Origin: Mycoplasmatota bacterium
GTDB lineage: Bacteria > Bacillota_I > Bacilli_A > Izemoplasmatales > Izemoplasmataceae
Reading direction: 5' to 3'
Assembly: GCA_030600605.1 (NCBI GenBank)
Contig: JAUVLT010000002.1
Coordinates: 259 to 64,258, forward strand
DNA length: 64,000 bases
A model generated the notes under the pieces. The model saw only the letters and a program-made list of their open reading frames with translations, was not told the origin of the DNA and ran no database searches. Positions within the stretch are counted from its first letter, which is position 1; every line of letters begins with the position of its first letter. Below, one piece after another: positions 29,447 through 58,888 of the stretch. Position numbers and translations under genes: made by a program.

Positions 29447-29478
29447 AAGAAAGCAGTCTTTTGCAAGACTGCTTTCTT
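29447..29478 (-). terminator. Rho-independent terminator after the esterase gene
   Basis: 14-bp stem AAGAAAGCAGTCTT/AAGACTGCTTTCTT with a TTGC loop. Overlaps the stop codon. Confidence 0.7.
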
Positions 29479-32043: not shown

Positions 32044-32058
32044 ATGAAACCGCTACCA
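32044..32058. promoter_or_regulatory. cre / LacI-family operator-like site ATGAAACCGCTACCA in the divergent GH13 promoter region
   Basis: Matches the CcpA cre consensus WTGNAANCGNWNNCW at every position. Shares the half-site TGGTAGCG with the site at 53228-53241. Confidence 0.5.
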
Positions 32059-41935: not shown

Positions 41936-41940
41936 AATAT

Positions 41941-42846
41941 CTAACCCCTCTCTCCAAATAATCGATATGCTATTTTATTAAACAAAAGAACAATAACTAG
42001 TAAAATTACAGTTACTGCAGAAGCATATCCCATTTCAAATCTCGTAAACCCAAAATCATTCGCATGGTCTACGATAAGCCAGCCAGCATATTGTGGTGGG
42101 GTTCCCCCACCCGATAAAGCAGATGCCAATCCAGCAGCATTAAAAGTACCAATAATACTCATAACTGCTCCAAATAACATTTGTGGTTTTATAGATGGAA
42201 TAGTAATGTAAAATATTTCTTGCCATCTGTTTCTCATCCCATCAATCGCAGCTGCTTCATATAAACTACGATCAATATTTAAAATACCAGCGAGCATTGC
42301 TAAAAATCCAAGTCCCATACTTCCCCATAATGATACGATAATCATAATCGGAAATAGGTAATCAGCATCTTGTAAAAATTGAATTGGTGAATCAATACTA
42401 AACATATTTATTAACATACTATTGATATATCCTGTTTCATCACCACTAAAGATTATTCTCCATACAAAGGCCATCATAATTGGTCCTGTAATAGATGGTG
42501 AATAAATAATTACGGCATAAATAGTTCTAGCTTTATGTGGTACTTGTGCTAACATCCATGCAAGGAAGAAGGCCATCATATAACCAATAGGTCCAACAAC
42601 AACACTAAATAAGATAGTATTTGAAACAGCATTTTGTAAAAATACTGTATCACCTGTAAAAATATCCACATAGTTTTTTAGTCCAATAAATGTTGGTGTT
42701 TCAATTGTATTAAAAGACGTAAAACTAAGTCCCATAGCTACAAGTACTGGTAAAGCAATTACCAATATAAATAAGATAGCATAAGGTGCAATGAATAAGT
42801 AAGGTGATTGTAGTAATCTTTTAAATCCTTTACTCTTCATCATCAT
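41941..42846 (-). CDS. Carbohydrate ABC transporter permease (MalF-like, ~300 aa)
   Basis: EAA loop SLYEAAAIDGMRNRWQEIFYITIP. Three consecutive ATGs follow AGGAGGTA; the 2nd or 3rd is the more likely start. Overlaps the upstream stop. Confidence 0.9.
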   Translation of the reverse strand: MMMKSKGFKRLLQSPYLFIAPYAILFILVIALPVLVAMGLSFTSFNTIETPTFIGLKNYVDIFTGDTVFLQNAVSNTILFSVVVGPIGYMMAFFLAWMLAQVPHKARTIYAVIIYSPSITGPIMMAFVWRIIFSGDETGYINSMLINMFSIDSPIQFLQDADYLFPIMIIVSLWGSMGLGFLAMLAGILNIDRSLYEAAAIDGMRNRWQEIFYITIPSIKPQMLFGAVMSIIGTFNAAGLASALSGGGTPPQYAGWLIVDHANDFGFTRFEMGYASAVTVILLVIVLLFNKIAYRLFGERG

Positions 42847-45800
42847 TACCTCCTAGCCACAGATGAATATTCTCATAAGTAGGAACAATATATGGTTCCA
42901 CCATAACTCCATCTTCATAATATCCAAACTCAGTTAATTTTCTTTTAAGTTCCCTGTTTATAATTATAACCGCATCATCAATTGCCACACGTGGATTTAC
43001 TCCATCGTTTACAACTTTGTTCCAAGCGTTACTAAGTTCTCGTTCAAGTAAATAATCACCAGGAACTCGTCCTGTTGTTCGAACCCAGTTCCATTGTTCT
43101 AATACTTCATATTTCGAGTCACTTGGCCAAGCACTTGTTTTAAATGCTTCAATATTTGCAGTCATATACAAGAATTCATCTCCAAGTAAAGACTGAAGTT
43201 GATATGTAAAATCACTTTGTACATCTTTACTAAACCACCAAGCAAAATATTCCCATGCTAGATCTTGTTTTGATGAATCTGAAAAAATTATACTACTAGT
43301 CCCATAAGTTGGATCCCATCTTTCGATACATCTGTCACCAGTTAGTGGTCCAGGACATGTTGTTTCATCTTTATCAGTTTCAATACCAGGAATAGGCATT
43401 ACTCCCCATTGTCCCGCAAGTTCAGGAGCAGCATATTTTAATTGAATATACATATTTCCGTCCCCTATACCAAGAGGAACTTGTCCATCTCTAAACTTTT
43501 GGAAAAATCTTGATGTCGTAATTGGTACATTATAAACACTAAACAAATCTGTCATAAATTCAAATGCATCATACGATCCATCTTCATTAATAATTGTTTT
43601 ATCTCCAGTTTCATTATATAAAACTCCACCATATTGATAAATAAATGGTGTCGTTTCTCCAAATGTTTTAAAAGCATTATCTCCACCTAGTGGAGTATAA
43701 AAATAATAATTATACTTTTGCATTACAGGAATTAAACTAACTACTTCTTCCCATGTTTCAGGTGGCTCAACACCTAAAAATTCTAAAATATCTTTTCGAT
43801 AAAATAGTAATTTAACATCTTGAGTTTCAGGAATAGAATAAATTCCTCCTTCATATACAAAAGGTATAAAAGAATTTTCATTGAATTCAGCTGATAAATC
43901 ATAAAATCCATCAAATTCAGAAAGATCAGTTACTATTCCTCTTAAAGCGAATTCAAAAGGCCTTGTAACACTTAATCCCATTGCAGCATCAGGTGTAGTG
44001 CCTGCAGCATTCGCAAGAACTATTTTATTTTCATCAGGCATGACTGATAATTGAACTTTCACTCCAGTTTCTGATGTGAATTCCTCATCAATCATTCTTT
44101 GCATTACTTCAATATATAATCTTGAATTTCTAACCCATATTTCAACAGTTTCTTCATCGGTAATAGAAGCATCGTTATATTTTGGATCAAAAAACGAATA
44201 AACAAATGCTCTTATTCCTTCCCAACTTCTTATAAAAATATTGACATTAGGTTTAGGTAATTCGATATTTTCACCATGAATATAAATCGAATCTAATTGA
44301 AGTGGATTATCAATTAAGCTCGGTAATATAATATTGATACGTCCATAAATGGATGTATCTCCAACATTATATCTAGATTGATATGGTGGTATTTCATCAG
44401 GATCCTCAATAAATTGATTCATATATTTAATAGCAATATTTAATTCAGTAATTATCGCCATGTCATCAGATTCATATATTTCAATTAACTGGTTTCTACT
44501 ATCAATTATTTCGTCTCTTTGTCTAGTTAGTTCTCCTACAATATTTGGAATATAGACATCAAGTTTGTAGTTACGATATCTGTCAGTTAATCCACCAGTA
44601 ATTTTGTTAACTTCGCGTGCTAAATCATTAATATCACTTAATACTTCTACCAATTGATGGTATACATCATCAACATCTTCATTTACTGCGGTAAGCGTTA
44701 GTGAATGTGTTCCAGCTGTAAAATAAAACTCAAATGCTTCACCATCAAGATGCAATGTTTCATTTCGATAATTTCTTGAATAAGGAAAATCATAATTTTT
44801 TAAATCCTCAAACAAAATATCGCCATCAATTAATATACGGCGACTAGTTGAGAGATCTTCATTTTCACTTTGAAGATATTTTAAAGAAAGGTTATAAATA
44901 CCTGTTTCTGCAATTTCAAATATATACGTTATACTATCTCCACTCTTACGATAAGATGATTGATCTACCACATTTAAAACACGATTCTTGTAAGAATATG
45001 GTGTAAGTCCAGGATTTCTTTGAAACTTAGCTCTAATATTTTGTTTGCTTTCATATGTATATCTTTCAGCATCAATTACTAATAAAGAATCAGCTTTTGA
45101 AGAAGTTTCTAATGAAGAAAGGTATTCAGAATAACTAGGAATATCAGAAGATAGGTTTCCTATTTCTATATCCCCTAACAAAATATACCCTTCATTTATT
45201 ATAATTGATAATTCGTTTTCTCCAGCTTGTAAGAAAAATTTAAGAGGCTCATTGAAAAAATAGTTTGGATCGGATAAAGCAAAAACACTCCATTCTTGAA
45301 ATAAAGAACTATCTGGAGTTATTTCATCACCAAATCGATCAAACAGCTTTTCTGAATCAACTTCCCACTTTAATGGTATTTCTAAATTGTACATTTCATT
45401 ATATTGAACAATATCATTTACTTTAAATGTAAGTGTTGGTCTAAGTAATGTTTCTTCTAATAGATAATAATTTAAATATAACTCATAAAGTCCCTCTTCA
45501 GACACATTTACTGTAAAAGTGATTTCATCTTTAGGAGTAACTTTTATTGTCTCACGATTATATCCTCGACTATAATAAGGCGAGATTTCTTCTCCTCCCA
45601 CTATATCTTCAACATTAATTAAATAAACATCACTAGGTGATAAAATGTTTAATTCTTGCCAATAATTATAAACACCATAGTAATTATTACTTTCGTCATA
45701 TCCTTCTAAATAAGCAGAACTAGAATCAACAATACTTTCAAACTTAACATTTGCTACTTCTTCTAAAATACTATTAGCGCTTGCCACGTTATGAAAATGT

Positions 45801-45865
45801 GACAACACTTTGTCTCCGAATATCAATGAAAATAATAGAACAATTATTAAAATTTTTCTATACAT
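42830..45865 (-). CDS. Giant extracellular solute-binding protein: two CBM-like beta-sandwich modules plus helical linker plus family-1 SBP domain (1011 aa)
   Basis: Signal peptide without a lipobox Cys. Two ~200-aa modules show CBM6/35-like patterns (EGLYELYLNYY..., TGIYNLSLKYLQ...). The C-terminal ~450 aa are SBP-like (VEIWVRNS..., PDAAMGLS..., WGVMPIPG). Confidence 0.8.
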   Translation of the reverse strand: MYRKILIIVLLFSLIFGDKVLSHFHNVASANSILEEVANVKFESIVDSSSAYLEGYDESNNYYGVYNYWQELNILSPSDVYLINVEDIVGGEEISPYYSRGYNRETIKVTPKDEITFTVNVSEEGLYELYLNYYLLEETLLRPTLTFKVNDIVQYNEMYNLEIPLKWEVDSEKLFDRFGDEITPDSSLFQEWSVFALSDPNYFFNEPLKFFLQAGENELSIIINEGYILLGDIEIGNLSSDIPSYSEYLSSLETSSKADSLLVIDAERYTYESKQNIRAKFQRNPGLTPYSYKNRVLNVVDQSSYRKSGDSITYIFEIAETGIYNLSLKYLQSENEDLSTSRRILIDGDILFEDLKNYDFPYSRNYRNETLHLDGEAFEFYFTAGTHSLTLTAVNEDVDDVYHQLVEVLSDINDLAREVNKITGGLTDRYRNYKLDVYIPNIVGELTRQRDEIIDSRNQLIEIYESDDMAIITELNIAIKYMNQFIEDPDEIPPYQSRYNVGDTSIYGRINIILPSLIDNPLQLDSIYIHGENIELPKPNVNIFIRSWEGIRAFVYSFFDPKYNDASITDEETVEIWVRNSRLYIEVMQRMIDEEFTSETGVKVQLSVMPDENKIVLANAAGTTPDAAMGLSVTRPFEFALRGIVTDLSEFDGFYDLSAEFNENSFIPFVYEGGIYSIPETQDVKLLFYRKDILEFLGVEPPETWEEVVSLIPVMQKYNYYFYTPLGGDNAFKTFGETTPFIYQYGGVLYNETGDKTIINEDGSYDAFEFMTDLFSVYNVPITTSRFFQKFRDGQVPLGIGDGNMYIQLKYAAPELAGQWGVMPIPGIETDKDETTCPGPLTGDRCIERWDPTYGTSSIIFSDSSKQDLAWEYFAWWFSKDVQSDFTYQLQSLLGDEFLYMTANIEAFKTSAWPSDSKYEVLEQWNWVRTTGRVPGDYLLERELSNAWNKVVNDGVNPRVAIDDAVIIINRELKRKLTEFGYYEDGVMVEPYIVPTYENIHLWLGGNDDEE

Positions 45866-45890
45866 TTTTATTCTCCCTTCAATACTAACA

Positions 45891-45927
45891 AACCAATAAC
45901 CCTTCAGAAGGTGAAGAGTTATTGGTT
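45891..45927 (-). terminator. Strong intercistronic stem-loop between the two SBP genes (partial terminator / mRNA stabiliser)
   Basis: The minus-strand RNA AACCAAUAACUCUUCA-CCUUC-UGAAGGGUUAUUGGUU forms a ~16-bp stem (one G-U pair). It is followed by a poor U-tract (UGUUAGUAUUG). Confidence 0.5.
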
Positions 45928-45946
45928 AATTTCTAGTATTTTCTAA

Positions 45947-47764
45947 TTATTTATTTACGCCAATGTAGTATTGTAAATATCTTACAATTTCTTCATTTAA
46001 TGTTAATTCTCTTTCTGGTGCAATGTCAACCCAGCTTAAACTCTCATCTCTCATTTCATCCTTAATACTCCAAGGATCAAATGCATTTGCTACTGACGCG
46101 AACGCCGGTATTTGACGTGGATAAGGGTTTGCATTTGACATTTGATACTGGAACGCTACGTTTCGGAATGCATCAAAATTATAACGAGCCAATACTGAAT
46201 TACTATCAAATCCTTTTACTAGTGGATGCATTGCCATAACTGCAGGATTACTAGTAATTGGCCATCCTTGAATATAATCCATTAAATATAAAGTTCCATC
46301 TGTAAAGCTAACAGGATCAGCAGCATAAACCATGTCCCATCTACTTTCGAGACCTTCTTCACCAAATGTTAACCATTTAACTAATTGGAATGCAGCTTCT
46401 GCTTTTACTCTATCTTCTTCTAGTACTTTTGAAATACTATAATAATCATGATAAGTATAAGTAGCAGTTTGTCCACCTTCAGGTGCAATTGGATAAGGAT
46501 AAATATCAATTGTTTGTCCTTTATCTACCATTGTATTAACAGATGCATTGAATGCCCATAAGTAAATTGTGTTAATTGCACGTACACCATCTGTCCATGA
46601 ATCAGTTACATCTGGACAAAGTGTTTCGCGATCTGCTTCAAGTAAATCATAGAAATGCCATCCTTGTTTTGCTTCTGTAGCAACACTTTCAAGCCAAGCT
46701 CCATAATTAGTAGCATTAGCAAAATCAAATCTTTGTGTAATAGTGTTATATCCTTTATATCCATTTGGGACACTATCGAAATAATTAGAACCTTGAATTG
46801 AAAAATCAATTACACCAGGGAATACACATTGCCCTGCGTTAGTGATTAATCCAACTTCATTACGGATTTCTTCATATTCAGCATATGTCCAATCGTATGA
46901 TGGAGCATCAATACCAAGAGTTTCTAATAAGCCTGTATTAACAGCTACAATTGGTCCAACACCTTGCCATGGGATACCCCACATTTCAAGGTTATCATAA
47001 GTCATCATACCAGATACTGCATTTGGTGTAATGAATTGAGCTTCTTCATCAGTTTTAATGTATGGCCATAAATCAATAGTCATACCTTTATCATATGTTT
47101 CAGCGCCTTTAGGATTGAAGAAAATATCAGGTAAAGTTCCTTCTAATAATGCGTTTTCTTGAATTAACAATAAACCATCATCACCATTTTCCCAACCACT
47201 TGAGTAAAGTGGATTACGAGTTACATTTATATTTGGATATTTTTCCATGAACTCAAGAACATTTTTCCAAATAGCGTTATCTTCATCAACGTCACCATAA
47301 TAGCTGAATCCCATTTCTAAATCAATAGTATCCACTTGCCAATCTGGTGTTCCATCACTGTTCTTATCCACATTGTAAATTGTACCTTCATATAGTTCAC
47401 GGGCTTTATCAAGTTCTGTTTTACAAATATCTTGTGTAGGATCTTCTTCACAAGTTAAAGCCAGTACTACCAAAATAACATTTAAACTTACTTTGAATCC
47501 AGAATCATCAGTAGCACTAAGTACAATGTCATATTCACCGATAGTAGTTAAATCGTAACTACCAGTGATTTTTACATCAACAGCATTTCCATCTTTATCC
47601 ACAGCTGAAATTCCTTCTAAAGAAATTCCAGATGCATTTAGTTTCACTTCTAATGTTCCATTTTCTACAATACCAGCAATCGTTGGAGGTGTAGTATCTG
47701 TGCTACACCCAACAAACACAATTGCAAATACCATAGTAACGGCAATTAATAATATTTTTCTCAT
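45947..47764 (-). CDS. Lipoprotein solute-binding protein with N-terminal Ig-like (DUF5011-like) module and Cys-loop linker (605 aa)
   Basis: Lipobox-like AIVFVGC; Ig-like module (GEYDIVLSATDDSGF); CEEDPTQDIC; then an SBP family-1-like region. The RBS AGGAGGTAA lies directly after the upstream stop. Confidence 0.8.
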   Translation of the reverse strand: MRKILLIAVTMVFAIVFVGCSTDTTPPTIAGIVENGTLEVKLNASGISLEGISAVDKDGNAVDVKITGSYDLTTIGEYDIVLSATDDSGFKVSLNVILVVLALTCEEDPTQDICKTELDKARELYEGTIYNVDKNSDGTPDWQVDTIDLEMGFSYYGDVDEDNAIWKNVLEFMEKYPNINVTRNPLYSSGWENGDDGLLLIQENALLEGTLPDIFFNPKGAETYDKGMTIDLWPYIKTDEEAQFITPNAVSGMMTYDNLEMWGIPWQGVGPIVAVNTGLLETLGIDAPSYDWTYAEYEEIRNEVGLITNAGQCVFPGVIDFSIQGSNYFDSVPNGYKGYNTITQRFDFANATNYGAWLESVATEAKQGWHFYDLLEADRETLCPDVTDSWTDGVRAINTIYLWAFNASVNTMVDKGQTIDIYPYPIAPEGGQTATYTYHDYYSISKVLEEDRVKAEAAFQLVKWLTFGEEGLESRWDMVYAADPVSFTDGTLYLMDYIQGWPITSNPAVMAMHPLVKGFDSNSVLARYNFDAFRNVAFQYQMSNANPYPRQIPAFASVANAFDPWSIKDEMRDESLSWVDIAPERELTLNEEIVRYLQYYIGVNK

Positions 47765-47780: not shown

Positions 47781-50700
47781 CTAAAATGGTTTCTTAAGAA
47801 AGAATAATATTCCTCCACCAACAACTGCTACTCCACCAACAACAATACCAACGATTGCTCCTGGACTTAAAGCTGGAGTTTCAGCAGCAGCTTCGATAAC
47901 TACTTCTAAGCTGTATGTTGATGTATTACCTGCATCATCAGTTGCAGTATAAATTACATAGAATGAACCAGCATTTGCCATATTAACTTGTGATTCATCT
48001 ATTGTTATAGTACCTTCATTAACTGAAGCGAATGTTGCCCAATCAGGTTCAGTGTCTCCTGCTGTATAAGTTAAAGTATCATCTGCAGTAAAGACTGGAG
48101 CAGTAATATCTAAAACTGTAAATACAAATGAACTTGTTGTTACATTCATCCAAGCATCAGTTGCTGTAATAATTACTGTTTGTACACCTGGTGTACTAGT
48201 ATCTAAGCTAGTAGTAATTTCATAATCAATTTCACCATCACGGTTATCTACAAATTGTAATTGAGTGAAATAATCCATAATATCAAAAGTTTCACCTTCA
48301 TCAATTTCAAATACTACATCCGGAACTACTGAATCAAATAATTCTGGTGCTTCATTATCAATATCAAGATTAATATAAACAATAAATCCATTTTCATCAG
48401 TAAATACTAATCGATATGTTTCAGTTACATCTAGTTTATTAGCTTCAAGTAAAGTAATTGAATGATTTACTGATCCAGCAGCGTTTCCGCCTTCTTCAAC
48501 ATAAACATGTGTATCTCCATCAAAATTAAATCCAATATCTCCTGGAGTAATTTCTGGGTCTAATACTGAATCCCAAGTAATTCCATCAAGATCCTTATCA
48601 TATTTAATTTTGAATGTTCCACTTGTTGTTGAATCCGAAACACATAATTGAATTACATAGTTTCCATTAGAATCAATTCCGATAGATGGAACAGTATTTC
48701 CGATATCCCATCCTTGAACATCTCCAACTAATCTAATTTGTGATAAAGAGATTGGATTAGCTTCAAATAAGTTAACATGAACAGTTAATTTGTTTTCATT
48801 TGCTGCGCAAGTTAATTGACTTGTAAAATCACCAATAGCTCCATTTGTATATTCATATGTTGCAAAATCAATAACAGTACCTGTTGAATCTTGTAATTCT
48901 AATCCAGACATTGGTAATGTACCATTTTCGAATGCAACTAAAATACTTGTTGGAGAAATTGCGTAAGTACCAGTTTCATCAATTACAACAGGTGCAACAA
49001 AGTTATTACTTACATCAAATGTAAGTTCTTCAGATTCAATAACTACTGCATCTTCTGTACCTGTAGCTAAAGCATCTGTATATTGAATATAGAATACTTC
49101 ACCATACTGAAGTTCATTCGCAGTAACTAAGTTCAAAGTAACCATTGCTGTACTTAAATCAGTTATTTCTGAACCAAGAACTACTACTTGTACAGTAGGA
49201 TCTAATTCATCAACAAATAAGATTATTGAATCATCTTCACCCATATCAAATGCTTGATCAGATGTCGTAATTTCTGTGTCTCCCCAATTAAATCCATTGT
49301 CGTCATTATCAAATAAAATTTTAAATGATCCTGTACTTCCATCAATAACAAATTCAAATATTGCTTGTCCATAACTATCATCTTTTGTTGATAATATTGG
49401 ATTTACAACATCCCAACCTTGAATAGTTCCAACTAGACCAAGTTTAGTATGATCTAATGCTGAATCTACATATATAACAACATATTTTTGTGCTTCTTTA
49501 GGAAATACTTCTTGAGTATAAGATTTAACATCATGTTCAGTTCCTAAATCAACAACTACAGCTGTAGGATCTAATTCATCAATAAATAGAATTATTGAAT
49601 CATCATCACCCATATCAAATGATTGATCTTCTGTAGTTACTTCAACGTCATCTGCATTATCCCATGCAAATCCGTCTCCTGAAGTATCAAATAATATTTT
49701 AAATGTTCCTGTGCTTCCCACAATTGCAATTTCAAATACTGCGTATCCATTAACATCGTCTTGAGTTGACATAATTGGATTGTTAATATCCCAACCTTGA
49801 ACATCTCCGACAAGTCCTAATAAAGAATGATCTAATGCAGAATCAACATATATTAAGACATATGATTCTTTTACATCAGGTATTACTGTTTGTGTAAATG
49901 TACCTGTATTATGTCCTGAACTTGCGATAACAACTTCGACAGTTGGATCACTTTCATCAACATATAAAGATAACTCCATTTCAGTACCTAAATTATAAGC
50001 TTGATTACTTGGTGTAATTTGAACATCATCTACGTTATCCCAAGTTAATCCATCATCAGATGTATCAAACATAATTTTAAATTCACCTGTTGTTCCTGTA
50101 GTTACAAATTCAAATACAGCAAGTCCAGTTGAACTATCTCCGGTAGACGAAATTGGATTATCAATATCCCATCCTTGCATATCTCCAACAAGTCTAAGTA
50201 ATGAATGATCTAATGCTGAATCTACATAGATTACAACATATTTTTCATCTACGTTAACTGGAGTAAGTGTAGCTGTATAAGTTCCAACAGCAGGTCCAGT
50301 AGCTGCAATAACAATCTCAGCTGTAGGTGATGCTTCATCTATAAATAATGATAACTCAGTTTCTCCATCAAAATCAAATGCTTGATCAGCCGGAGTTATT
50401 TCTGTATCTCCCCAGTTAAACCCATTATCATCGTTATCAAATATAATTTTAAATCCTCCAGAAAGAGCAGTTGTATCAACTTCAAATACAGCTAATCCAT
50501 TTGCATCATCTCCTGAAGATGTAATTGCAGATGCAGGATCCCATGCAGTTGTTTGCATATCTCCTACAATACCAATTTTTGTATGATCTAATGCAGAATC
50601 AAGATAAATAACTAAATAATTATTTACAGGTGTAACTGCATGTGTATAAGAACCAATCGTATGACCTGATCCTAATGTAAGAACTTGAACATCAGGTGAT

Positions 50701-53132
50701 GTTTCATCTACAAATAAATAGATTTCAGTATCAGTTCCCATATCAAATAATTGATTAGATCCATGAATTGAATCTGCCCATGTAAATCCATTATCATCAG
50801 CATCAATTAATACTTTGAATGCTCCAGTAGTATCAGTAGTTACAAATTCAAATACAGCGAGTCCATTACTGTCATCTCCTGTAGATGTAATAGCTCCTAC
50901 GTCGTTCCAGCCATTTAATGTCCCAACAATACCAATTTTAGTATGATCGGCAGCTGAATCAACATAAATTCTAACGTAGTTTTCAGATACATTAACTGGT
51001 GTAACAGTTTGTGTATAAGTACCAACGTCATGTCCACTACCAATAATTACAACTTCAACATCAGGTGAAGTTTCATCTACAAATAAGTAGATTTCATCAT
51101 CAGTTCCCATGTCGAACAATTGATCAGATCCATGAATTGAATCTCCCCAATCAAATCCATCATCACTATTATCAATTAACACTTTAAATGCTCCAGTAGT
51201 ATCAGTAATTGCGAATTCAAATACGGCAAATCCATTACTGTCATCTCCTGTAGAAGTAACTGCATTTACTTGATCCCAGCCATTTAATGTTCCAACAATA
51301 CCAATTTTAGTATGATCGGCAGCTGAATCAACATAGATTCTAACATAATTTTCTTTTACTGTAGGGAATACTTCTTGAGTATAAGCACCAACATCATGTC
51401 CAGTTCCTAAATCAACAACTTCGGCAGTTGGTGTTAATTCATCAATAAATAAAATTAATGAATACTCGCTTCCCATATCAAATGATTGATCATCTGGAGT
51501 TACTTCTGCATCTCCCCAATCAAATCCATCATCACTATTATCAAATAAAACTTTAAATGTTCCGGTAGCTCCCAAAATTACAAACTCGAATACAGCGTAC
51601 CCCATTGCGTCATCTTGAGTCGAAGTAATCGCTTCAGCTGGAGTCCAAGCATTTTCTTGAACATCTCCAACGATACCAAGTTTAGTATGATCTAATGCTG
51701 AATCAACATATACAACAATATGTCTTTCAGCGTCATCAGGAAATACTTCTTGAGTATAAGTTCCTACTTGAATGTCTGAAACATTAATATAATAATAAAC
51801 AGTTGTTTCACCTTCAAAATCAAATTCTTGATCTTCTAATGTAATATGAGGATCTAATTCTTGATTCCAAGAATCATCAAATCCATCTCCATCAGGATCA
51901 TAAACAAGTTTAAATTTACCACTAGTTTCAGTAGTACAAATTTCAAATACAGCATTTCCATTAACATCATCTTTTGTTGATGCTATAGAAGTTTCAATGT
52001 CCCAACCTTGTAAACTTCCCACAATACCAAGTAATGAATGGTCTAGTGAAGAAGTAACATAAAGAACAAACATGTTTTCACCCGCACCACAAGTTGTATC
52101 TGAAGTGTATGATCCAAGACCAGCCATACTTCCAATTGTTACAGATTCAATTGGTACATTAGCACCTAGAATATCAACAATTTTAAATCTAGATAAGTCA
52201 TAAGAAATTGGATTCTTAGGCATTAAGAATTCAACTTTTACAGCCGTTGGAGTAGAAACAATTGTTCCACTCATAAATCTGTTTCCGGCATTTAAATCAT
52301 AAGCAGTTGCAACACTAGTTAAGAATAAACTTCCATCAGTGTAATCAGCATTAACGCCCGCTTCAAAATAAATAACATCTGCCCCTGATCCACGGATATC
52401 AGTATTATCATATTCAACATCCGATGTTTGGCTTGTCCAACTGTTTCCACCAGTTCTAAATAAGAATCCAGTGTCATCAGCTATATCAGCTGCAACTTCA
52501 ATAATTGCAAGTTTAGCAGGAATTTCATATTCCCCTGCTTTTAAAACCATATCTTGATTGAAATCAGTTGCAATACCATCTCCTGCACCAAACCAAGACC
52601 ACATATCCCAACCATCATAGACAGTTGCATCAGCTGCAACAATAGGATTAGCATAAACAATAAATAATAATCCTTTATCTGTAACAGCTTCTACGAATCC
52701 AGTAGCACCTTCAACGTAGTATACTTCTAAGTTAGTAATGCTTCCATCTTTTAAAGAAGAAACATCTAACATTATTTTCCCTTCCCCCGGTGACAAGTAA
52801 TTAGCTTGAGCTATTGTATCGTCATCACTAGTGCTTTCACTAGTAAGCTCAAACTGTATTTCAGCATTAACTGCATTAATTTCTGCAGCTGTGTACTCTT
52901 TTACAATCACACCACCAAAATCGTCAGTCGAATCAACAAGATCGCCCCAACCATTCCAGGTTATGCCATCCCAAATTCCGGCTCCTGTGTTTGTATAAAC
53001 ACCATCATATTGATGGACATGAATAGTAATTGTCACATCTTCTGTCGCTTCAGCTACAACATTCGTAAAACTGAATCCTACAAACAAAACAGAAAGTGTA
53101 AAAATAAGTGCAAAATTCAAAATTTTTCTCAT
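47781..53132 (-). CDS. 1783-aa multi-module cell-surface protein: signal peptide, 2 CBM41-like modules, 9 starch-binding-like ~120-aa modules, 2 Ig-like (DUF5011-like) modules, C-terminal TM anchor
   Basis: The ATG at 53130-53132 lies 7 nt after AGGAGG. CBM41-like VTITIHVHQYDG... and YDGWDMWSWFGAGDG...GFLFRTGGNSWTSQ. Repeated YVDSALDHTKIGIVG.LQGWD...GLAVFEF...TGAFKVLFDN.DDGF.WGD. C-terminus GAIVGIVVGGVAVVGGGILFFLKKPF. Confidence 0.85.
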   Translation of the reverse strand: MRKILNFALIFTLSVLFVGFSFTNVVAEATEDVTITIHVHQYDGVYTNTGAGIWDGITWNGWGDLVDSTDDFGGVIVKEYTAAEINAVNAEIQFELTSESTSDDDTIAQANYLSPGEGKIMLDVSSLKDGSITNLEVYYVEGATGFVEAVTDKGLLFIVYANPIVAADATVYDGWDMWSWFGAGDGIATDFNQDMVLKAGEYEIPAKLAIIEVAADIADDTGFLFRTGGNSWTSQTSDVEYDNTDIRGSGADVIYFEAGVNADYTDGSLFLTSVATAYDLNAGNRFMSGTIVSTPTAVKVEFLMPKNPISYDLSRFKIVDILGANVPIESVTIGSMAGLGSYTSDTTCGAGENMFVLYVTSSLDHSLLGIVGSLQGWDIETSIASTKDDVNGNAVFEICTTETSGKFKLVYDPDGDGFDDSWNQELDPHITLEDQEFDFEGETTVYYYINVSDIQVGTYTQEVFPDDAERHIVVYVDSALDHTKLGIVGDVQENAWTPAEAITSTQDDAMGYAVFEFVILGATGTFKVLFDNSDDGFDWGDAEVTPDDQSFDMGSEYSLILFIDELTPTAEVVDLGTGHDVGAYTQEVFPTVKENYVRIYVDSAADHTKIGIVGTLNGWDQVNAVTSTGDDSNGFAVFEFAITDTTGAFKVLIDNSDDGFDWGDSIHGSDQLFDMGTDDEIYLFVDETSPDVEVVIIGSGHDVGTYTQTVTPVNVSENYVRIYVDSAADHTKIGIVGTLNGWNDVGAITSTGDDSNGLAVFEFVTTDTTGAFKVLIDADDNGFTWADSIHGSNQLFDMGTDTEIYLFVDETSPDVQVLTLGSGHTIGSYTHAVTPVNNYLVIYLDSALDHTKIGIVGDMQTTAWDPASAITSSGDDANGLAVFEVDTTALSGGFKIIFDNDDNGFNWGDTEITPADQAFDFDGETELSLFIDEASPTAEIVIAATGPAVGTYTATLTPVNVDEKYVVIYVDSALDHSLLRLVGDMQGWDIDNPISSTGDSSTGLAVFEFVTTGTTGEFKIMFDTSDDGLTWDNVDDVQITPSNQAYNLGTEMELSLYVDESDPTVEVVIASSGHNTGTFTQTVIPDVKESYVLIYVDSALDHSLLGLVGDVQGWDINNPIMSTQDDVNGYAVFEIAIVGSTGTFKILFDTSGDGFAWDNADDVEVTTEDQSFDMGDDDSIILFIDELDPTAVVVDLGTEHDVKSYTQEVFPKEAQKYVVIYVDSALDHTKLGLVGTIQGWDVVNPILSTKDDSYGQAIFEFVIDGSTGSFKILFDNDDNGFNWGDTEITTSDQAFDMGEDDSIILFVDELDPTVQVVVLGSEITDLSTAMVTLNLVTANELQYGEVFYIQYTDALATGTEDAVVIESEELTFDVSNNFVAPVVIDETGTYAISPTSILVAFENGTLPMSGLELQDSTGTVIDFATYEYTNGAIGDFTSQLTCAANENKLTVHVNLFEANPISLSQIRLVGDVQGWDIGNTVPSIGIDSNGNYVIQLCVSDSTTSGTFKIKYDKDLDGITWDSVLDPEITPGDIGFNFDGDTHVYVEEGGNAAGSVNHSITLLEANKLDVTETYRLVFTDENGFIVYINLDIDNEAPELFDSVVPDVVFEIDEGETFDIMDYFTQLQFVDNRDGEIDYEITTSLDTSTPGVQTVIITATDAWMNVTTSSFVFTVLDITAPVFTADDTLTYTAGDTEPDWATFASVNEGTITIDESQVNMANAGSFYVIYTATDDAGNTSTYSLEVVIEAAAETPALSPGAIVGIVVGGVAVVGGGILFFLKKPF
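49173..52085 (-). repeat. Eight tandem in-frame ~360-378-nt coding repeats (residues ~350-1320); a ninth diverged copy lies at 48489-48812
   Basis: YVDSA[AL]DH anchors at residues 358, 475, 600, 723, 843, 969, 1095 and 1221. Copies 3 and 4 are near-identical at the nucleotide level (compare 50935-51000 with 51295-51360). Confidence 0.85.
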
Positions 53133-53155
53133 TCATATTCCTCCTAAAAATTTTT

Positions 53156-53170
53156 TTAAAACGCTTTCAT
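53156..53170 (-). promoter_or_regulatory. cre-like site (minus strand ATGAAAGCGTTTTAA) just upstream of the RBS of the 1783-aa gene
   Basis: One mismatch to WTGNAANCGNWNNCW. Lies 11 nt upstream of the AGGAGG RBS. Confidence 0.35.
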
Positions 53171-53227
53171 AACTATATATATAATTCTACATTTTTTGAA
53201 TTAAATAGTCAAAAGATTTACAAAAGA

Positions 53228-53241
53228 TGGTAGCGTTACCA
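53228..53241. promoter_or_regulatory. Perfect 14-bp palindrome TGGTAGCGTTACCA (LacI-family operator-like)
   Basis: Exact dyad with a central CG. With flank A it has one mismatch to WTGNAANCGNWNNCW. Confidence 0.45.
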
Positions 53242-53323
53242 CAAAAAAAAGTCTACATTCAAAGGGGAAAATAAGCACTTGCAAGTCCGAAAATAAGGAA
53301 TATATTTTCTTAATAATTATAGC

Positions 53324-53337
53324 TGTAATCGTTTTCA
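53324..53337. promoter_or_regulatory. cre / LacI-type operator TGTAATCGTTTTCA overlapping a candidate promoter of the 1783-aa gene
   Basis: Full match to TGWAANCGNTNWCA. It sits between a minus-strand TATAAT (53316-53321) and a TTACAA -35-like hexamer (53341-53346). Confidence 0.5.
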
Positions 53338-53356
53338 AATTTGTAAAAAATATTAT

Positions 53357-53381
53357 AAAAAAAGCACGAATAAATTCGCAC
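53357..53381 (-). terminator. Rho-independent terminator after the pullulanase gene
   Basis: The minus-strand RNA GUGCGAAUUUAUUCGUGC forms a 7-bp stem (two G-U pairs) followed by U7. Confidence 0.6.
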
Positions 53382-53387
53382 TATTTT

Positions 53388-56300
53388 TTATAATAATAGT
53401 TTTCTAATAAAATATAAACCTGCCCCTAATCCTCCAACTCCAGTTGTAATTGCAATTACAATAATTACCGTTTTATTTTCATCCACAGGTTCTTCTTGAC
53501 ATCTATCTTGTGTTGGATCCTCATCACACGTTGGAGGTTCTGTTTGGCATTTATCTTGTGTTGGATCTTCTTCACATGTAAGAGGATCTACTTGACATTT
53601 ATCTTGTGTTGGGTCTTCTTCACATGTCAATTCTGTTGTTGTATTTTCTAAAACTGTTAAGGAAAATATATCAGATATTCCACCATAAATATCTTTTACT
53701 CTAAACTCGTAATCACCAACTACTAAATCTGATATCTTTACGAATGTTGAAGGAGTATCTAAAACAATATACTCTCCATTATTAATTTGATATTCGGCAA
53801 TTTCAGTATTTGAACCTAAAACAAATTCTCCTCCTTCAAACATAACCCCAATAATGTTTGTAATCTCTGGGGAATGGAATGGAGAATCAATTATATCTTC
53901 AACATGGCCTTTTACAAAAACAAGAGTTTCAGCTTTTTCAATTGGATATCTAACGGCAAATGTTCCTAAACTAACAAGCCCTGCTTTATCTTGATCACTT
54001 ATCAACATCCAAGCTCCAGCTGGCAAACTAACATCATTTGTATATTTCCCACCATTATGATAGACCAATATATCTTCATTGTTTTTTGTTAAATTGTAAC
54101 CAATCATTCCATATCCTTCAGGATTAAGGAATGTTAGGTTTGCTGCTATATCACTTTCATCAGTCATTTTAAATGATTCATATGCTTTTCTAATCTCAAT
54201 AATACCTTTGTAATATTCAAAAGATTCAATGTTTGTTGATTTGCGAACCCAGTTTAATTGATTTACTAAATCACTAGCATCATAGCTATTATGATTTCCA
54301 CCTTTAGTTCTCAAGAAATCAACTCCAGCATGTAAAAATGGAACTCCTTGACTAAACATTATTATCGAATTAGCAAGTCTGGCTTGATAATCAACTTCTT
54401 CTGTATATCCAGATGCTGAATTAGTAGCGAGTAATTTGTCATAAAGTGTTAAATTATCGTGAGCGGAAACATAGTTAATTGTTTGAGAAGAAGTTAATCC
54501 CCAATTATCACTACCTGATATTCCATATTTAACACCAGCTATACCGGCACTATTTGTAACATATCCAGCTCCATTTGCATCCCAAGTAGAACCTTTAATA
54601 GCGTCTCTAAATCCATCATTAAAAGCTGATATTAGTGGCATATTAGTTAAATTATTTTTCCCAGCTTGTAAATTATAATCTAAGGCGATTGTTCCACCAC
54701 CCCAAGGTTCACCATAAACAAAAATATCTTCATCAATTAATTCAAGTTCACTAGCAAGTGTATTCATAGTAGCAACATCATGAATAGCCATTAAATCAAA
54801 TCTAAATCCATCAATATGATATTCTTCTGCCCACATTTTAACTGAATCAACAATATACTTAGAAACCATATATCTTTCACTCGCAGTTTCGTTACCTACA
54901 CCACTACCATTACTATATGATCCGTCTGGATTTAATCTAAAAAAGTAATCTGGAACAATCTTATTAAAACAATAAGCTGAACCATTACCGGTATGATTAT
55001 AAACAACATCTAAAATAACGTTTATACCGTTATCATGTAATGCCATTACCATTTGTTTATATTCATTAACTCTAACTGATCCATCAAATGGATTAGTTGA
55101 GTATCCCCCTTCAGGACTATTATAATGTTCTGGATTATATCCCCAGTTAAAAACAAAATTGTTTTCATCATTCCATGAGTCTTGATCATATGTTGGTAAT
55201 AAATGAACATGGGTAATTCCAAGTTCTACTAAATGATCTAATCCTGTTGTTACTGTTATATCATTATAAGGATTTGTAAATGTTGTCCCACTTACAGTAA
55301 ACCCCATATATGTTCCACTATACTCACTAGGTCCTCCCCAAGAATCTTGAGTTGTAAGATCGCGAACATGAAGCTCATAAATAATTGAATCATTAATATT
55401 TGTATAGCCATTAATTCCTGTATCTATATCCCAACCAATTGGATTTATTTGATCAAAATCAATAACCATAGCTCTCTTACCATTAAGCCCAAAAGTTTGT
55501 CCATAAGGATCTGGAATATCACTTACTTTTGATCCACTATTCGTGACATTATATGTATAGTAAACACCATGTAAATCTCCTAACACCGTAACTTCCCAAA
55601 CACCTTTTTCAAGATATACCATCGGAATTGTAAGATAAGGATTATCTACTCCATCAACTCTAGAAGCAACACTGTGTCCTGCGCTATATAAATTAAGTTC
55701 TACCTCACTTGAAACAGGAGCCCAAAGTTTAAATGTTGTTTCTGTAGAACTATATAAGAATCCTAATTCACCATTATAGTTATAAGCATTATTAAAAACA
55801 ACAGAATCGTAATCGTCACCAAATCTAATTATATTTGTTACAATTTCTGTTCCTAAATCAATAGATATCTCATATTTTTTAGAAACATCTACTCCACCTA
55901 TTATTGTTAGAGTTCCACTTGTTCCACTACTAAAACCAGTAAATGAAACTGAAACTCCTTCTTTTAAAATTGTAATATCTGAACTATCCACTACAACACT
56001 TGTCATAAAATAGACATCTAAGCTATTATTAAAATAAGCATCTAATAATCTTACTCCAATAACTTGTGCACAGTTATAAGGATCATTAAATACATCTCTA
56101 TTACAACTTGGTGTATCTTCTAAAACATATGAAATAAAATCTTCTGTTTGTAATAGATAGACATGAACTTCTCCATTTCCATTAGGGTTAGTCATATCAA
56201 TAAAACGATCAATTTCGCCATCTCTTTCTGTCCATCCTCCAATAGATCTAACAATAACTCCAACACTATTATATCCATCTAAGTTAGTACTTGAAATGTC

Positions 56301-56674: not shown

Positions 56675-58888
56675 ATGAGAAAAGTAATTATCTTAAGTTT
56701 ATTTCTAATATTTTTATTAAGTGCTTGTTCTAAAGATGATAGAACTATTACTTTTAATATTGAAGATAATTATGAGATCGATATTCTTCTTGGTGAAGAT
56801 GATATAGATCTTAATTTTATCGAAGCAATTGATGAAGATGGTATGAATCTCTCTCCATTTTTGGAAATAGTCGGAGAATATGATTTAAATACTGTTGGTA
56901 CATATAATCTAACTATTACTGTTACTGATAATTTTGGAACACAAGGCTCAGTTGATATAATTCTTAATGTTATCGAGTTATCTTGTGAACAAGATAGTAC
57001 TCAAGATAAATGCATTATTTCAGTAACTAATATTTCATTTACTGAAGAAAGTGCTTTAGTAAATGAATTATATGTAAATGATTTTATTAAATTAAAATGG
57101 AACATCACTCCAAGTGATGCATTAAATAAAGATGTAATTATTACATCAAGCAATCCCTTAATTGCTACTGTCAATATCTATGGTTATGTTTTTGGAATTA
57201 GTGAGGGTAGTGTTGATATTACCATCAAAACAGTCGATGGAAACTTTACTTTGATAAAAACAATAAATATTATCGAAAAAAGTTGTGCACTTGATCCTTA
57301 CCAAGATAAGTGTATCAATCTATTTTTGTCTGATACAACAAGAATAATAACTTTACAAGATGAAAACATTAGTGGAACTGATTATACACAAGTCTATCTA
57401 AACAACAAAATTTATTATCAAATATTTGTAAGAAGTTTTGCTGATAGTGATGGCGATAATATTGGTGATTTCCAAGGTATTATTGATAATTTAACATATT
57501 TAAAAAGTTTAGGTGTTGGTGGTCTTTGGTTAATGCCAATGATGCAATCACGCGCAGACCACGGCTATGAAACTGATGATTATTATGATGTTGATGATGA
57601 ATATGGAACAATGGTTGACTTTAAAGAATTAGTAAGCGCAGCTGAGTTAGTTGGTATTGATATTATTATCGATTTAGTCATTAATCATATGGGTGCTCAT
57701 AATGATATTTTCCAAGATGTTTTAAAAAACGGTACAAGTAGTATCTATTATGATTGGTTCACTTGGATTGATAATACTGATTCAAGATATGGAACAAAAG
57801 GATCTTGGGGACAAACTATTTGGTGGAACCCATCTAGTAATCCCTACATAAAGAAAACAACTTTTTCTGTTCATTCATCTTTAAATGGGAAATACTTCGC
57901 AGGATATTTTTCAGAATGGATGCCAGATTTAAACTTCACAAATACAGAAGTAGTTAATTATATTTATGATGTTGGAACATGGTGGCTTGAAGAAACAGGT
58001 ATAAAAGGATATCGAATGGATGCGATAGCTCATATTTATGGATATAATGAATACCTTGGTATTAGTGATACACATCAAGCTAATATCGATCTCTTAACAA
58101 ATTTTAGAAATAATTGTTTACTTGCTAATTCTAATGTCTATATTGTTGGTGAAGTTTGGGATAGTTATTATACATATAGTAAGTATTACGAAGCAGGAAT
58201 TAGCACTTTTAACTTTGCAGTTGGTGATTATATAATTTCAGCAGTTAACGGGAATTTAGGAACTAGCTACAGTTCTGTTTTAGATCAGGTTTATAATGAA
58301 ATTGAAAAATATTCAACGGAGTATATTGATGCTCCATTCCTGAAAAATCATGATCAAGATAGAATTGCTAGTATCTTAGATAATGATGATAAACTAAGAA
58401 TGGCAGCTGAAGCATTATTATTTTTACCAGGTAATCCCTATATCTATTATGGTGATGAAATCGGAATGCTAGGAACAAGAACTAACTTCTTATGGGGAAC
58501 TTATTATGATTCTCTCTATGCTGATTACGCCGATCGATATGTCGATACAGTTAGTGAACAATTAGCACTTCCAGATTCTTTACTAAATGCATATATTGCA
58601 ATGGGTGAAACTAGAACAAATAGTTTGGCTTTAATGTATGGAGATTATCAAGCATATTCAGAAGGGGGACTAGATGGTTTCTTCCGAATATTTGAAAATG
58701 GTGAAGATAAAGAACTTGTTATTGTATTATTTAACTTCAGTTCAGTTTATAGTAAACCAATTCCTCCAGGATTTACAAGCTATGAAATACTATACAGTAG
58801 TTATGAAAATAACTTTGGGGGAATATCTCCAAAAGGAACTATTGTATTAAAAATACCTTATGAACTTAAAGATACATTTATCAATTAA
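56675..58888 (+). CDS. Lipoprotein GH13 alpha-amylase with N-terminal Ig-like module, two Cys-loops and a Big_2 domain (737 aa)
   Basis: Lipobox LLSAC. Ig-like module (GTYNLTITVTDNFG). CEQDSTQDKC. Big_2-like ITPSDALNKDVIITSSNPLIATV...GSVDITIKT. CALDPYQDKC. GH13 regions DLVINHMG, GYRMDAIAH, VGEVWD and FLKNHDQDR. Confidence 0.9.
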   Translation: MRKVIILSLFLIFLLSACSKDDRTITFNIEDNYEIDILLGEDDIDLNFIEAIDEDGMNLSPFLEIVGEYDLNTVGTYNLTITVTDNFGTQGSVDIILNVIELSCEQDSTQDKCIISVTNISFTEESALVNELYVNDFIKLKWNITPSDALNKDVIITSSNPLIATVNIYGYVFGISEGSVDITIKTVDGNFTLIKTINIIEKSCALDPYQDKCINLFLSDTTRIITLQDENISGTDYTQVYLNNKIYYQIFVRSFADSDGDNIGDFQGIIDNLTYLKSLGVGGLWLMPMMQSRADHGYETDDYYDVDDEYGTMVDFKELVSAAELVGIDIIIDLVINHMGAHNDIFQDVLKNGTSSIYYDWFTWIDNTDSRYGTKGSWGQTIWWNPSSNPYIKKTTFSVHSSLNGKYFAGYFSEWMPDLNFTNTEVVNYIYDVGTWWLEETGIKGYRMDAIAHIYGYNEYLGISDTHQANIDLLTNFRNNCLLANSNVYIVGEVWDSYYTYSKYYEAGISTFNFAVGDYIISAVNGNLGTSYSSVLDQVYNEIEKYSTEYIDAPFLKNHDQDRIASILDNDDKLRMAAEALLFLPGNPYIYYGDEIGMLGTRTNFLWGTYYDSLYADYADRYVDTVSEQLALPDSLLNAYIAMGETRTNSLALMYGDYQAYSEGGLDGFFRIFENGEDKELVIVLFNFSSVYSKPIPPGFTSYEILYSSYENNFGGISPKGTIVLKIPYELKDTFIN

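Follow-up and report, generated by a model that had tools for sequence, protein, structure and literature searches.

The stretch of DNA analysed here, 64,000 nucleotides of contig JAUVLT010000002.1 (Mycoplasmatota bacterium, GenBank assembly GCA_030600605.1; hereafter the window), has a G+C content of about 29% and carries an α-glucan locus of about 29 kb, which encodes a pullulanase, three other GH13 enzymes and an ATP-binding cassette (ABC) importer. Within this locus, at 47781–53132 on the minus strand, an uninterrupted open reading frame (ORF) of 1783 codons encodes a surface protein of 1783 amino acids (aa), in which nine copies of a module of about 115 aa are preceded by two modules resembling carbohydrate-binding module (CBM) family 41. 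We infer that this protein is likely to be a non-catalytic, membrane-anchored and multivalent capture protein for α-glucan (starch, glycogen or pullulan), one that would bind its substrate through avidity and hand it on to the enzymes and transporter encoded beside it.

Architecture of the 1783-aa protein

The plus-strand reading of 47781–53132 is full of stops; the gene, like every part of the protein located below, lies on the minus strand. From the N to the C terminus, the protein comprises a signal peptide, two divergent CBM41-like modules, an adapter, eight tandem modules, a second adapter, a ninth module, two immunoglobulin (Ig)-like domains and a membrane helix. Pfam and NCBIfam scans of the translated ORF detected no catalytic family, GH13 included, and all segments of the protein are accounted for by β-sandwich or adapter domains. 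The signal peptide (aa 1–27, MRKILNFALIFTLSVLFVGFSFTNVVA; 53052–53132) is read from the sequence and has no lipobox cysteine, and the N terminus is conserved in 15 homologues. The C-terminal transmembrane anchor (aa 1758–1779; 47796–47861), likewise read from the sequence, is followed by KKPF (GAIVGIVVGGVAVVGGGILFFLKKPF), and no LPXTG sortase signal was seen by eye in the C-terminal sequence.

Nine copies of the repeat unit are anchored by the motif [ILV][GR][ILV]VG. Eight run in tandem at aa 351–1321 with a period of 117–126 aa: R1, which is of a Cys-bearing subtype (aa 351–461; 51750–52082), R2 (aa 469–577; 51402–51728), R3 (aa 593–698; 51039–51356), R4 (aa 716–821; 50670–50987), R5 (aa 837–942; 50307–50624), R6 (aa 962–1069; 49926–50249), R7 (aa 1088–1199; 49536–49871) and R8 (aa 1214–1321; 49170–49493). 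The ninth, R9 (aa 1445–1559; 48456–48800), is a diverged copy of the Cys-bearing subtype. R1–R8 are 41–81% identical to each other, the most similar pair being R3 and R4 (81% in protein, 84% in DNA), and R9 is 27–37% identical to them. A hidden Markov model (HMM) of the family retrieves every copy, with domain E values of 1.4e-37, 7e-40, 1.5e-37, 3e-38, 2e-40, 3e-38, 1e-39, 2e-42 and 6e-30 for R1 to R9, respectively, and finds no copy in any other ORF of the window, all six frames included. In twelve columns the nine copies agree without exception, and the motifs VG..QGW, AVFEF, FK[VIL] and DGFxW are present. The nine-copy repeat is real and lies far beyond chance.

The two adapters, at aa 264–350 (52083–52343) and aa 1330–1444 (48801–49145), have no Pfam match. 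Aligned with one another by blastp over 93 aa, they prove to be paralogues (E = 1e-4). Both close with ‘...TS..TC.A’, and the module after each contains one cysteine. The only four cysteines in the protein form the pairs 348/399 and 1442/1497, which link the end of each adapter (TC at 348 and at 1442) to the next module (R1 and R9). This suggests two adapter-plus-module cassettes, each with a possible disulfide, between which R2–R8 would form an expanded middle block. A cryptic catalytic domain in the adapter regions was considered and rejected: no family matched, and the regions are paralogous segments of about 90–115 aa.

Two further features of the chain were observed. A linker of the form G-[ST]-G-H-x-[VI]-G-x-Y-T-Q-x-V-x-P is conserved between the tandem modules R2–R8 (49150–51750), and its invariant-looking His and YTQ could add a strand or serve as a contact for a metal or ligand. 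The ectodomain (47886–53051) is extremely acidic, with 305 Asp and Glu residues against 47 Lys and Arg (11.9% Asp, 10.8% Thr), which fits a saline habitat.

The two N-terminal modules, N1 (aa 28–150; 52683–53051) and N2 (aa 151–263; 52344–52682), each have the Pfam family PUD (PF03714) as their sole match, at 18.6 bits (E = 0.0036) and 21.7 bits (E = 3.8e-4), respectively, both below the gathering score of 25 bits; the orthologous N2 modules of five homologues lie above it (25.6–33.1 bits). When aligned by hhalign with the PUD domains of the neighbouring pullulanase PulA and two orthologues, N2 reached a probability of 91.5% (E = 9e-7), and N1 a weaker 53% (E = 1.4e-4, 96 columns). An AlphaFold2 (AF2) model of aa 26–352, spanning N1, N2 and the adapter, has a mean predicted local distance difference test (pLDDT) score of 82, and its top two Foldseek matches are the CBM41 structures 2j72 and 2j71 of Thermotoga maritima PulA (E = 2e-5, target TM-score 0.70), the output not indicating which of the modules is aligned. 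Aromatic residues in a W-x-W arrangement form the sugar platform in CBM41. The N2 motif YDGWDMWSW aligns to ELWLWAG of PulA, and its counterpart in N1 is degenerate (GIWDGITWNGW). N1 and N2 appear CBM41-like at sub-threshold sequence strength, with a predicted CBM41 fold and profile-level homology, N1 being the weaker of the two.

The two Ig-like domains (aa 1593–1675 and 1676–1749; 47886–48356) are recognised through weak Pfam matches, all below cut-off, to Bact_surface_Ig-like (E = 2e-4 and 0.04), Big_3, Big_13 and InlK_D3. Bact_surface_Ig-like is presumably the family once called DUF5011. A distant relative (P0016, 30% identity) carries a Bact_surface_Ig-like domain above the Pfam cut-off near its own C terminus (90 bits, aa 1438–1498).

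Much of this architecture had been set out in a preliminary description drawn from the window's letters and ORFs. Its 1783-aa ORF, to which we add the strand, its signal peptide and C-terminal helix, its eight tandem modules plus a diverged ninth and its statement that GH13 regions are absent all held. Its CBM41-like pair stands in that both modules resemble PUD by hhalign and Foldseek, at Pfam scores below threshold; its two DUF5011-like Ig modules were found as Ig-like matches in both places, at weak E values. The two paralogous adapters, and the two Cys-marked cassettes flanking R2–R8, had been overlooked.

Relatives and predicted fold of the repeat module

To place the module, we compared its profile with 1.84 billion representative proteins at a cut-off of E ≤ 1e-3. 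It matched only 145, of which about 28 are close family members with 3–5 units each; the remaining matches (E = 1e-13 to 1e-4) are to proteins with 4–12 matched stretches. Pfam run on 20 sampled distant proteins identified AMPK1_CBM, CBM_48, X25_BaPul_like, CBM_20, CBM53, CBM26, SusF_SusE or CBM58 in 15 of them, often together with a type IX secretion tail, and gave no competing assignment on the matched stretches. The module is thereby connected, remotely, to starch-binding modules.

A profile of 52 units from 16 homologues found in 5.8 billion clusters (A2) aligned by hhalign to one of 23 units from the distant tandem proteins (A4) with a probability of 96.7% (E = 4e-10, 74 columns, about 23% identity) and with GW, FK and W in register. 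Since it was the A2 profile that picked out the A4 units, this result is in part circular. The unbiased part of the homology evidence is the whole-library E values and the independent Pfam identities of the proteins found. The A4 members, taken singly, match AMPK1_CBM (9/23), X25_BaPul_like (8/23) and CBM_48 (5/23), and the A4 profile finds in the PDB the CBM of AMPK β (1z0n, 3e-6), SusF (4fe9, 1e-4), the starch-binding domain (SBD) of Aspergillus niger glucoamylase (1ac0, 5e-4) and the X25-bearing pullulanase of Bacillus acidopullulyticus (2wan, 7e-3). PF26120, which gene tables name CBM_1st_SusF, has faint precomputed matches on 9 of the 16 family proteins, the window protein included. Derivation of the module from the CBM41, CBM48 (0.2%) or C-terminal domains of the adjacent PulA, or from N1 or N2, was rejected at hhalign probabilities of 0.2–3%.

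An AF2 model of R6, built on 52 family units, is an eight-strand β-sandwich with a pLDDT of 92. Its Foldseek matches in the PDB are mainly starch-binding modules, among them CBM41 (2j72, E = 3e-4), CBM20 and CBM25, alongside two kinds of non-CBM match, HGSNAT and pneumolysin-type toxins. The CBM20 matches (STBD1, Bacillus cereus β-amylase, cyclodextrin glucanotransferases (CGTases) and glucoamylases) superpose with TM-scores of 0.60–0.66 and root mean square deviations of 2.6–3.0 Å over about 105 residues at 15–19% identity; for individual CBM20 structures, the TM-scores are 0.66 (1cyg), 0.63 (1b90), 0.61 (1cqy) and 0.55–0.58 (8x8k). Because the E values are modest and CBM41, CBM20 and CBM25 match about equally, the predicted fold indicates a superfamily and not a family.

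Taken on its sequence, the module is best described as a divergent, unannotated family of the starch-binding superfamily; it is not filed under CBM20, CBM48 or X25 because it falls below every curated family threshold. Its nearest families appear to be the X25/SusF and CBM48/AMPK types rather than CBM20 proper. The CBM20/CBM48-type sandwich proposed in the preliminary description therefore survives as to superfamily (through TM-scores of 0.6–0.66, the 15 of 20 library proteins, the profile alignment and the residues described next), with its CBM20 half replaced by X25/SusF. The likeness to SusE and SusF drawn there as an analogy is apparently a real remote homology, SusF being the best PDB sequence match and faint CBM_1st_SusF matches occurring in relatives. 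The fold model of a single module and the comparison of repeat number among relatives, both proposed there, gave the CBM41, CBM20 and CBM25 matches above and the 4–7 modules reported below for relatives, against nine here.

Three residues stand out among the invariant columns. W28, K59 and W71 of the module are kept in all nine copies, as W377/K408/W422 in R1, W496/K527/W539 in R2, W619/K650/W662 in R3, W742/K773/W785 in R4, W864/K895/W907 in R5, W988/K1019/W1031 in R6, W1114/K1145/W1157 in R7, W1240/K1271/W1283 in R8 and W1475/K1508/W1520 in R9, and both tryptophans are invariant in 52 modules from 16 proteins at 23–57% identity. A weak alignment to the glucoamylase SBD places the triad on what we take to be W543/K578/W590 of CBM20 site 1. 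Aligned with 1z0n, the A4 profile places its W, K and W at chain positions 33, 59 and 66, which are W100, K126 and W133 of AMPK β1 (the construct starts at residue 68), so that W28/K59/W71 align transitively, via A4, to these three residues. In AMPK β1, W100G and K126Q abolish glycogen binding and mutants of W133 weaken it (PMC6274970). The Trp-Lys-Trp triad is thus a predicted sugar-stacking platform in each module.

The α-glucan locus and its distribution

Upstream of the gene, on the same strand, lies pulA, which encodes a type I pullulanase (TIGR02104, 648 bits) with a signal peptide and PUD, CBM48 and GH13 domains; PulA ends in a C-terminal transmembrane anchor of the same kind as that of the 1783-aa protein. 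At its C terminus (53388–53990, minus strand), three ‘CEEDPTQDKCQ’-like, Cys-flanked acidic repeats precede the transmembrane helix, which looks like a short stalk and membrane anchor. A GH13 lipoprotein gene (56675–58888) is transcribed divergently from pulA. Downstream, the next gene begins 16 nucleotides past the stop and encodes a 605-aa lipoprotein, followed by a 1011-aa MalE-like binding protein, two permeases, a 797-aa Yip1/NHL membrane protein, a DUF5696 protein, two permease-like genes and two GH13 genes. The placement of the gene between the pullulanase and the binding-protein and transporter genes, as first described, is confirmed by this order.

Several of these neighbours have features of their own. 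In the partner region (36355–47764, minus strand), the lipoprotein, of about 605–640 aa, has a weak SBP_bac_1 and an Ig-like match, the 1011-aa binding protein carries an N-terminal extension of about 570 aa, the Yip1-domain membrane protein of about 800 aa has NHL/SBBP-like repeats, and the DUF5696 protein is 771 aa long. Of the two GH13 genes, one encodes 560 aa (30257–31939, minus strand) and the other 607 aa (32219–34042, plus strand), the latter with an Alpha-amylase_N domain and an N terminus that by eye is unlike a signal peptide. With these two genes and an esterase-family gene (29477–30247, minus strand), the α-glucan locus reaches beyond the neighbours named in the preliminary description.

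The 255 nucleotides between pulA and the gene (53133–53387, minus strand) hold a terminator-like hairpin after pulA (53382–53363), a promoter-like TTGACT-17-TAGAAT (53212–53184), an AGGAGG ribosome-binding site and palindromes of the catabolite-responsive element (cre)/LacI type. One of these, TGNAANCGNTTNCA at 53324–53337, is the window's only perfect example; a second, at 53156–53169, has one mismatch, and a related palindrome, TGGTAACGCTACCA, lies at about 53227–53240. The chance expectation for such palindromes in a 255-nucleotide spacer is about 0.01. The operator-rich promoter reported at the outset is in this form partly confirmed, as one promoter-like site with one perfect, one single-mismatch and one related palindrome. 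No LacI-type regulator gene was identified among the window ORFs scanned. A similar site, TGAAACCGCTACCA, occurs at 32045–32058, upstream of the GH13 gene at 32219.

The core order of PulA, the 1783-aa protein family, a protein of about 610 aa, a binding protein of about 1010 aa, two permeases, the Yip1 protein and DUF5696 is conserved in four other genomes: Xianfuyuplasma coldseepsis (CP048914), ERZ26802894 NODE_14, LGOV01000978 and a Logan contig. The gene stands at the head of this conserved operon for α-glucan import, beside GH13 enzymes anchored at the surface. Full-length relatives in named genomes, which an alignment of the N-terminal region detected among genome contigs where the whole protein as query had detected none, all belong to Izemoplasmatales, Izimaplasma, Xianfuyuplasma or ‘Mycoplasmatota’ metagenome-assembled genomes. 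Members of this lineage are described as lacking a cell wall, and the cultured X. coldseepsis strain zrk13, in which the operon occurs, can use starch, maltose and isomaltose for growth (bioRxiv 10.1101/2020.11.18.388454). Among environmental Tenericutes, a gene for PulA is generally present (PMC7301438). The host is most likely a wall-less bacterium of the Izemoplasmatales type and not a gut Firmicute.

Most relatives have 4–5 modules, and no family member seen has more than the 9 of the window protein. The orthologue of Ca. Izimaplasma HR2 (L008, JRFF01000022, 9878–14584) has 7, so copy number has expanded independently or stepwise in the lineage. Two distant N-terminal homologues (L011 and L012, 23–25% identity) have no module matches, and their C-terminal parts may be built differently. 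A Lamin Tail Domain (PF00932) lies between the tandem block and the last module in P0013/L001 (X. coldseepsis QMS84226), P0003, P0010, P0012 and P0014, and the window protein is without it; the database name ‘lamin tail domain-containing protein’ arises because PF00932 is inserted in several orthologues.

Putative function, rival readings and known systems

On the likely reading as an α-glucan capture protein, the signal peptide would export the protein and the single C-terminal helix would hold it in the cytoplasmic membrane, with a long, very acidic chain of β-sandwiches projecting away from the cell. At the tip would stand the two CBM41-like modules, followed by nine X25/CBM48-like modules, each offering a Trp-Lys-Trp sugar-stacking platform. 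Single X25 modules of SusE and SusF bind weakly, with a dissociation constant of about 300 µM (PMC9112005), and we infer that each module here would bind α-1,4-glucan weakly, as they do. Eleven together could then yield high-avidity attachment to polymeric or granular α-glucan. This would keep the bound substrate close to two enzymes of the locus, the type I pullulanase anchored in the membrane and the GH13 amylase that is a lipoprotein. Their maltodextrin products would be passed on to transport proteins encoded downstream, namely the giant solute-binding protein and the ABC permeases. Capture of this kind is the role of SusE and SusF in the Sus system (PMC4173775).

Several results weigh against this interpretation. 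Pfam, in a copy without PF26120, gave no match for any of the nine units even at E ≤ 10, whether to CBM_20, CBM_48, AMPK1_CBM, X25_BaPul_like (PF22058) or SusF_SusE (PF16411), and neither NCBIfam nor Pfam scans of the whole protein returned a CBM match for the repeats. In searches of PDB sequences, the best match of the nine-unit profile (A1) was SusF (4fe9), over VGDFTGWD...FKI...DW, at a non-significant E of 0.11; the 52-unit profile found nothing significant, its best match being an unrelated acetyltransferase (E = 0.05). Direct hhalign comparison with the A. niger glucoamylase SBD, whose sequence was checked against 1ac0, gave the right register at a probability of 6% (P = 0.006). Individual distant stretches in the library score just 3–28 bits, and the A2–A4 alignment carries the circularity described above. 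The lysine of the triad is replaced in some homologue modules, where FK becomes FV or YL. X25-like modules, moreover, do not always bind alone: single X25 lobes of Sca5 failed to do so, and Sca3 modules retain just one tryptophan (PMC9112005).

The lack of curated CBM matches, together with X25-like modules elsewhere that do not bind alone or have lost their aromatics (PMC9112005), would also suit a structural stalk or generic adhesin, in which the starch-binding fold was kept and glucan binding lost, and which would hold the CBM41-like modules, or another ligand site, at a distance of tens of nanometres from the membrane, or coat the surface of a cell that has no wall. The extreme acidity of the ectodomain, the conserved linker between modules, as in stalk proteins, and the Ig-like domains point the same way. 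We nonetheless regard this as unlikely: a pure spacer has no reason to keep the triad in nine copies and both tryptophans in 52 modules, the nearest relatives by sequence and fold are glucan-binding modules, and every one of the five loci examined, in the window and in four other genomes, has the gene within a starch operon. We give less credence to the modules binding another glycan, such as an algal or marine polysaccharide or a glycan on host or particle surfaces, so that the protein would be a general particle-attachment adhesin co-transcribed with starch genes. The β-sandwich CBM fold also occurs in families of other specificities, the sequence of the module has diverged too far to reveal its specificity, and the relatives are environmental, many of them from marine-type sediments and enrichments; yet the relatives that can be identified, in sequence and among the nearest folds, are overwhelmingly specific for α-glucan (CBM20, 25, 41, 48, 53, 58 and X25), the non-CBM fold matches (HGSNAT and pneumolysin-type toxins) indicate no other glycan, CBM41-like modules stand in the same protein, every flanking enzyme is a GH13 and the binding protein is MalE-like.

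A scaffold would work through protein–protein contacts, gathering PulA, the GH13 lipoprotein, the giant binding proteins and the Yip1 and DUF5696 proteins into a surface complex resembling an amylosome without cohesins or dockerins. Co-conservation with large surface or membrane proteins (the lipoprotein of about 610 aa, the 800-aa Yip1/NHL protein and DUF5696) would agree with this, as would the X25 modules carried by the Ruminococcus bromii scaffoldins Sca3 and Sca5 (PMC9112005). It is the reading to which we assign the least weight: Pfam gives no match to a cohesin, dockerin or other known interaction module, either in the protein (E ≤ 1) or in eight flanking proteins (scanned at E ≤ 1e-3), no partner-like copy of the module turns up with the HMM in the rest of the window, and the conserved sugar-stacking triad would be left unexplained. 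A scaffold is compatible with glucan binding and does not exclude it. The label ‘amylosome-like’ given to the protein in the preliminary description is loose and, with no cohesin or dockerin found by Pfam at E ≤ 1, unjustified.

Among known systems, the α-glucan capture protein proposed here appears to be a functional counterpart, in a single-membrane cell, of SusE and SusF of Bacteroides thetaiotaomicron, and its repeat modules appear from their sequences to be remote homologues of theirs. Neither SusE nor SusF is catalytic; at the cell surface they display two and three X25-type CBMs in tandem, respectively, each of which binds maltooligosaccharides (PMC4173775, PMC9112005). Both systems share a non-catalytic protein tethered at the cell surface, tandem β-sandwich modules of about 120 aa and a gene in a starch locus beside a GH13 enzyme and a transporter. 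They differ in valency (9 + 2 modules here, 2–3 there), in anchoring (a C-terminal transmembrane helix in a single-membrane, wall-less cell against an N-terminal lipid anchor in an outer membrane) and in uptake (an ABC importer in place of SusC/D), and the protein described here has two CBM41-like tip modules and a sequence similarity that stays under every curated threshold.

The AMPK β module and CBM48 share with the repeat the order and approximate spacing of Trp...Lys...Trp, via the intermediate family, and the β-sandwich class; the repeat has no direct significant match to them and is longer, at about 110–115 aa. CBM20, as found in A. niger glucoamylase, CGTase domain E, B. cereus β-amylase and STBD1, provides the best superpositions and the register of GxW, (F/Y)K and W, at 15–19% identity, with Pfam CBM_20 unmatched and no evidence here for the second CBM20 binding site. 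Multi-CBM26 amylases of lactobacilli carry tandem CBM26 modules. R. bromii Sas20, Sca5 and Sas6 likewise provide a Gram-positive case of adherence to starch at the cell surface: several CBMs specific for starch take part, of which some belong to the X25 type and some sit on proteins that are not catalytic (PMC9112005; bioRxiv 10.1101/2022.11.20.514607). Unlike these R. bromii proteins and the lactobacillar amylases, the window protein has another module family, a much higher copy number and a wall-less host, and it shows no dockerin or cohesin match in Pfam scans and no LPXTG by eye.

Starch loci that encode non-catalytic surface proteins with starch-binding modules in tandem are already known, as are long SBD arrays in Bacteroidota. 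What is new is the sequence family (about 28 clusters, one lineage), the 9 + 2 valency, the anchoring by a transmembrane helix in a host that has no wall, and the series of copy numbers. If binding holds, this would be a SusE/F-like capture protein in a wall-less, single-membrane bacterium. We know of no described SusE/F-like surface glycan-capture protein from such a cell, and none surfaced in searches of the literature on Izemoplasmatales or Izimaplasma with pullulanase or starch. Free-living Izemoplasmatales would then join Bacteroidota and gut Firmicutes as users of non-catalytic, tandem starch-binding modules, and apparently of the same ancient module lineage; the proteins now labelled ‘hypothetical’ or ‘lamin tail domain-containing’ would merit a CBM family of their own or a separate X25 subfamily, which current Pfam and NCBIfam models miss; a natural series of 4, 5, 7 and 9 modules would become available for the study of avidity in polysaccharide capture; and the conserved operon, with its DUF5696, Yip1/NHL and giant binding proteins, would gain a functional handle. 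No concept is overturned, and the mechanism is an expected one.

A bolder extension, possible in our view but doubtful, is that the module of about 115 aa founds a new CBM family limited to wall-less bacteria of the Izemoplasmatales type (about 28 clusters in 1.84 billion), and that avidity has been tuned, lineage by lineage, through amplification from 4–5 copies to 7 and 9. On that view the membrane-anchored array would be a ‘starch velcro’ by which a cell lacking both wall and outer membrane sticks to insoluble α-glucan particles, perhaps in complex with the lipoprotein of about 610 aa and the Yip1/NHL and DUF5696 proteins.

The Bacteroidota proteins of the type IX secretion system found in the library (P0033, P0035, P0037, P0042 and others) resemble the window protein in their long arrays of 4–12 X25/CBM48-like modules, mostly without a recognised catalytic domain. 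They differ in export by a Por_Secre_tail and in the Cys-rich C-terminal half of each unit, and the similarity is about 23% identity over 74 columns. The module's nearest outgroup is formed by library proteins with 9–12 tandem X25/CBM48-like modules (P0033, P0035, P0037 and P0029); for P0029, Pfam shows fn3-type matches only, and P0033 and P0037 end in Por_Secre_tail, the type IX secretion signal.

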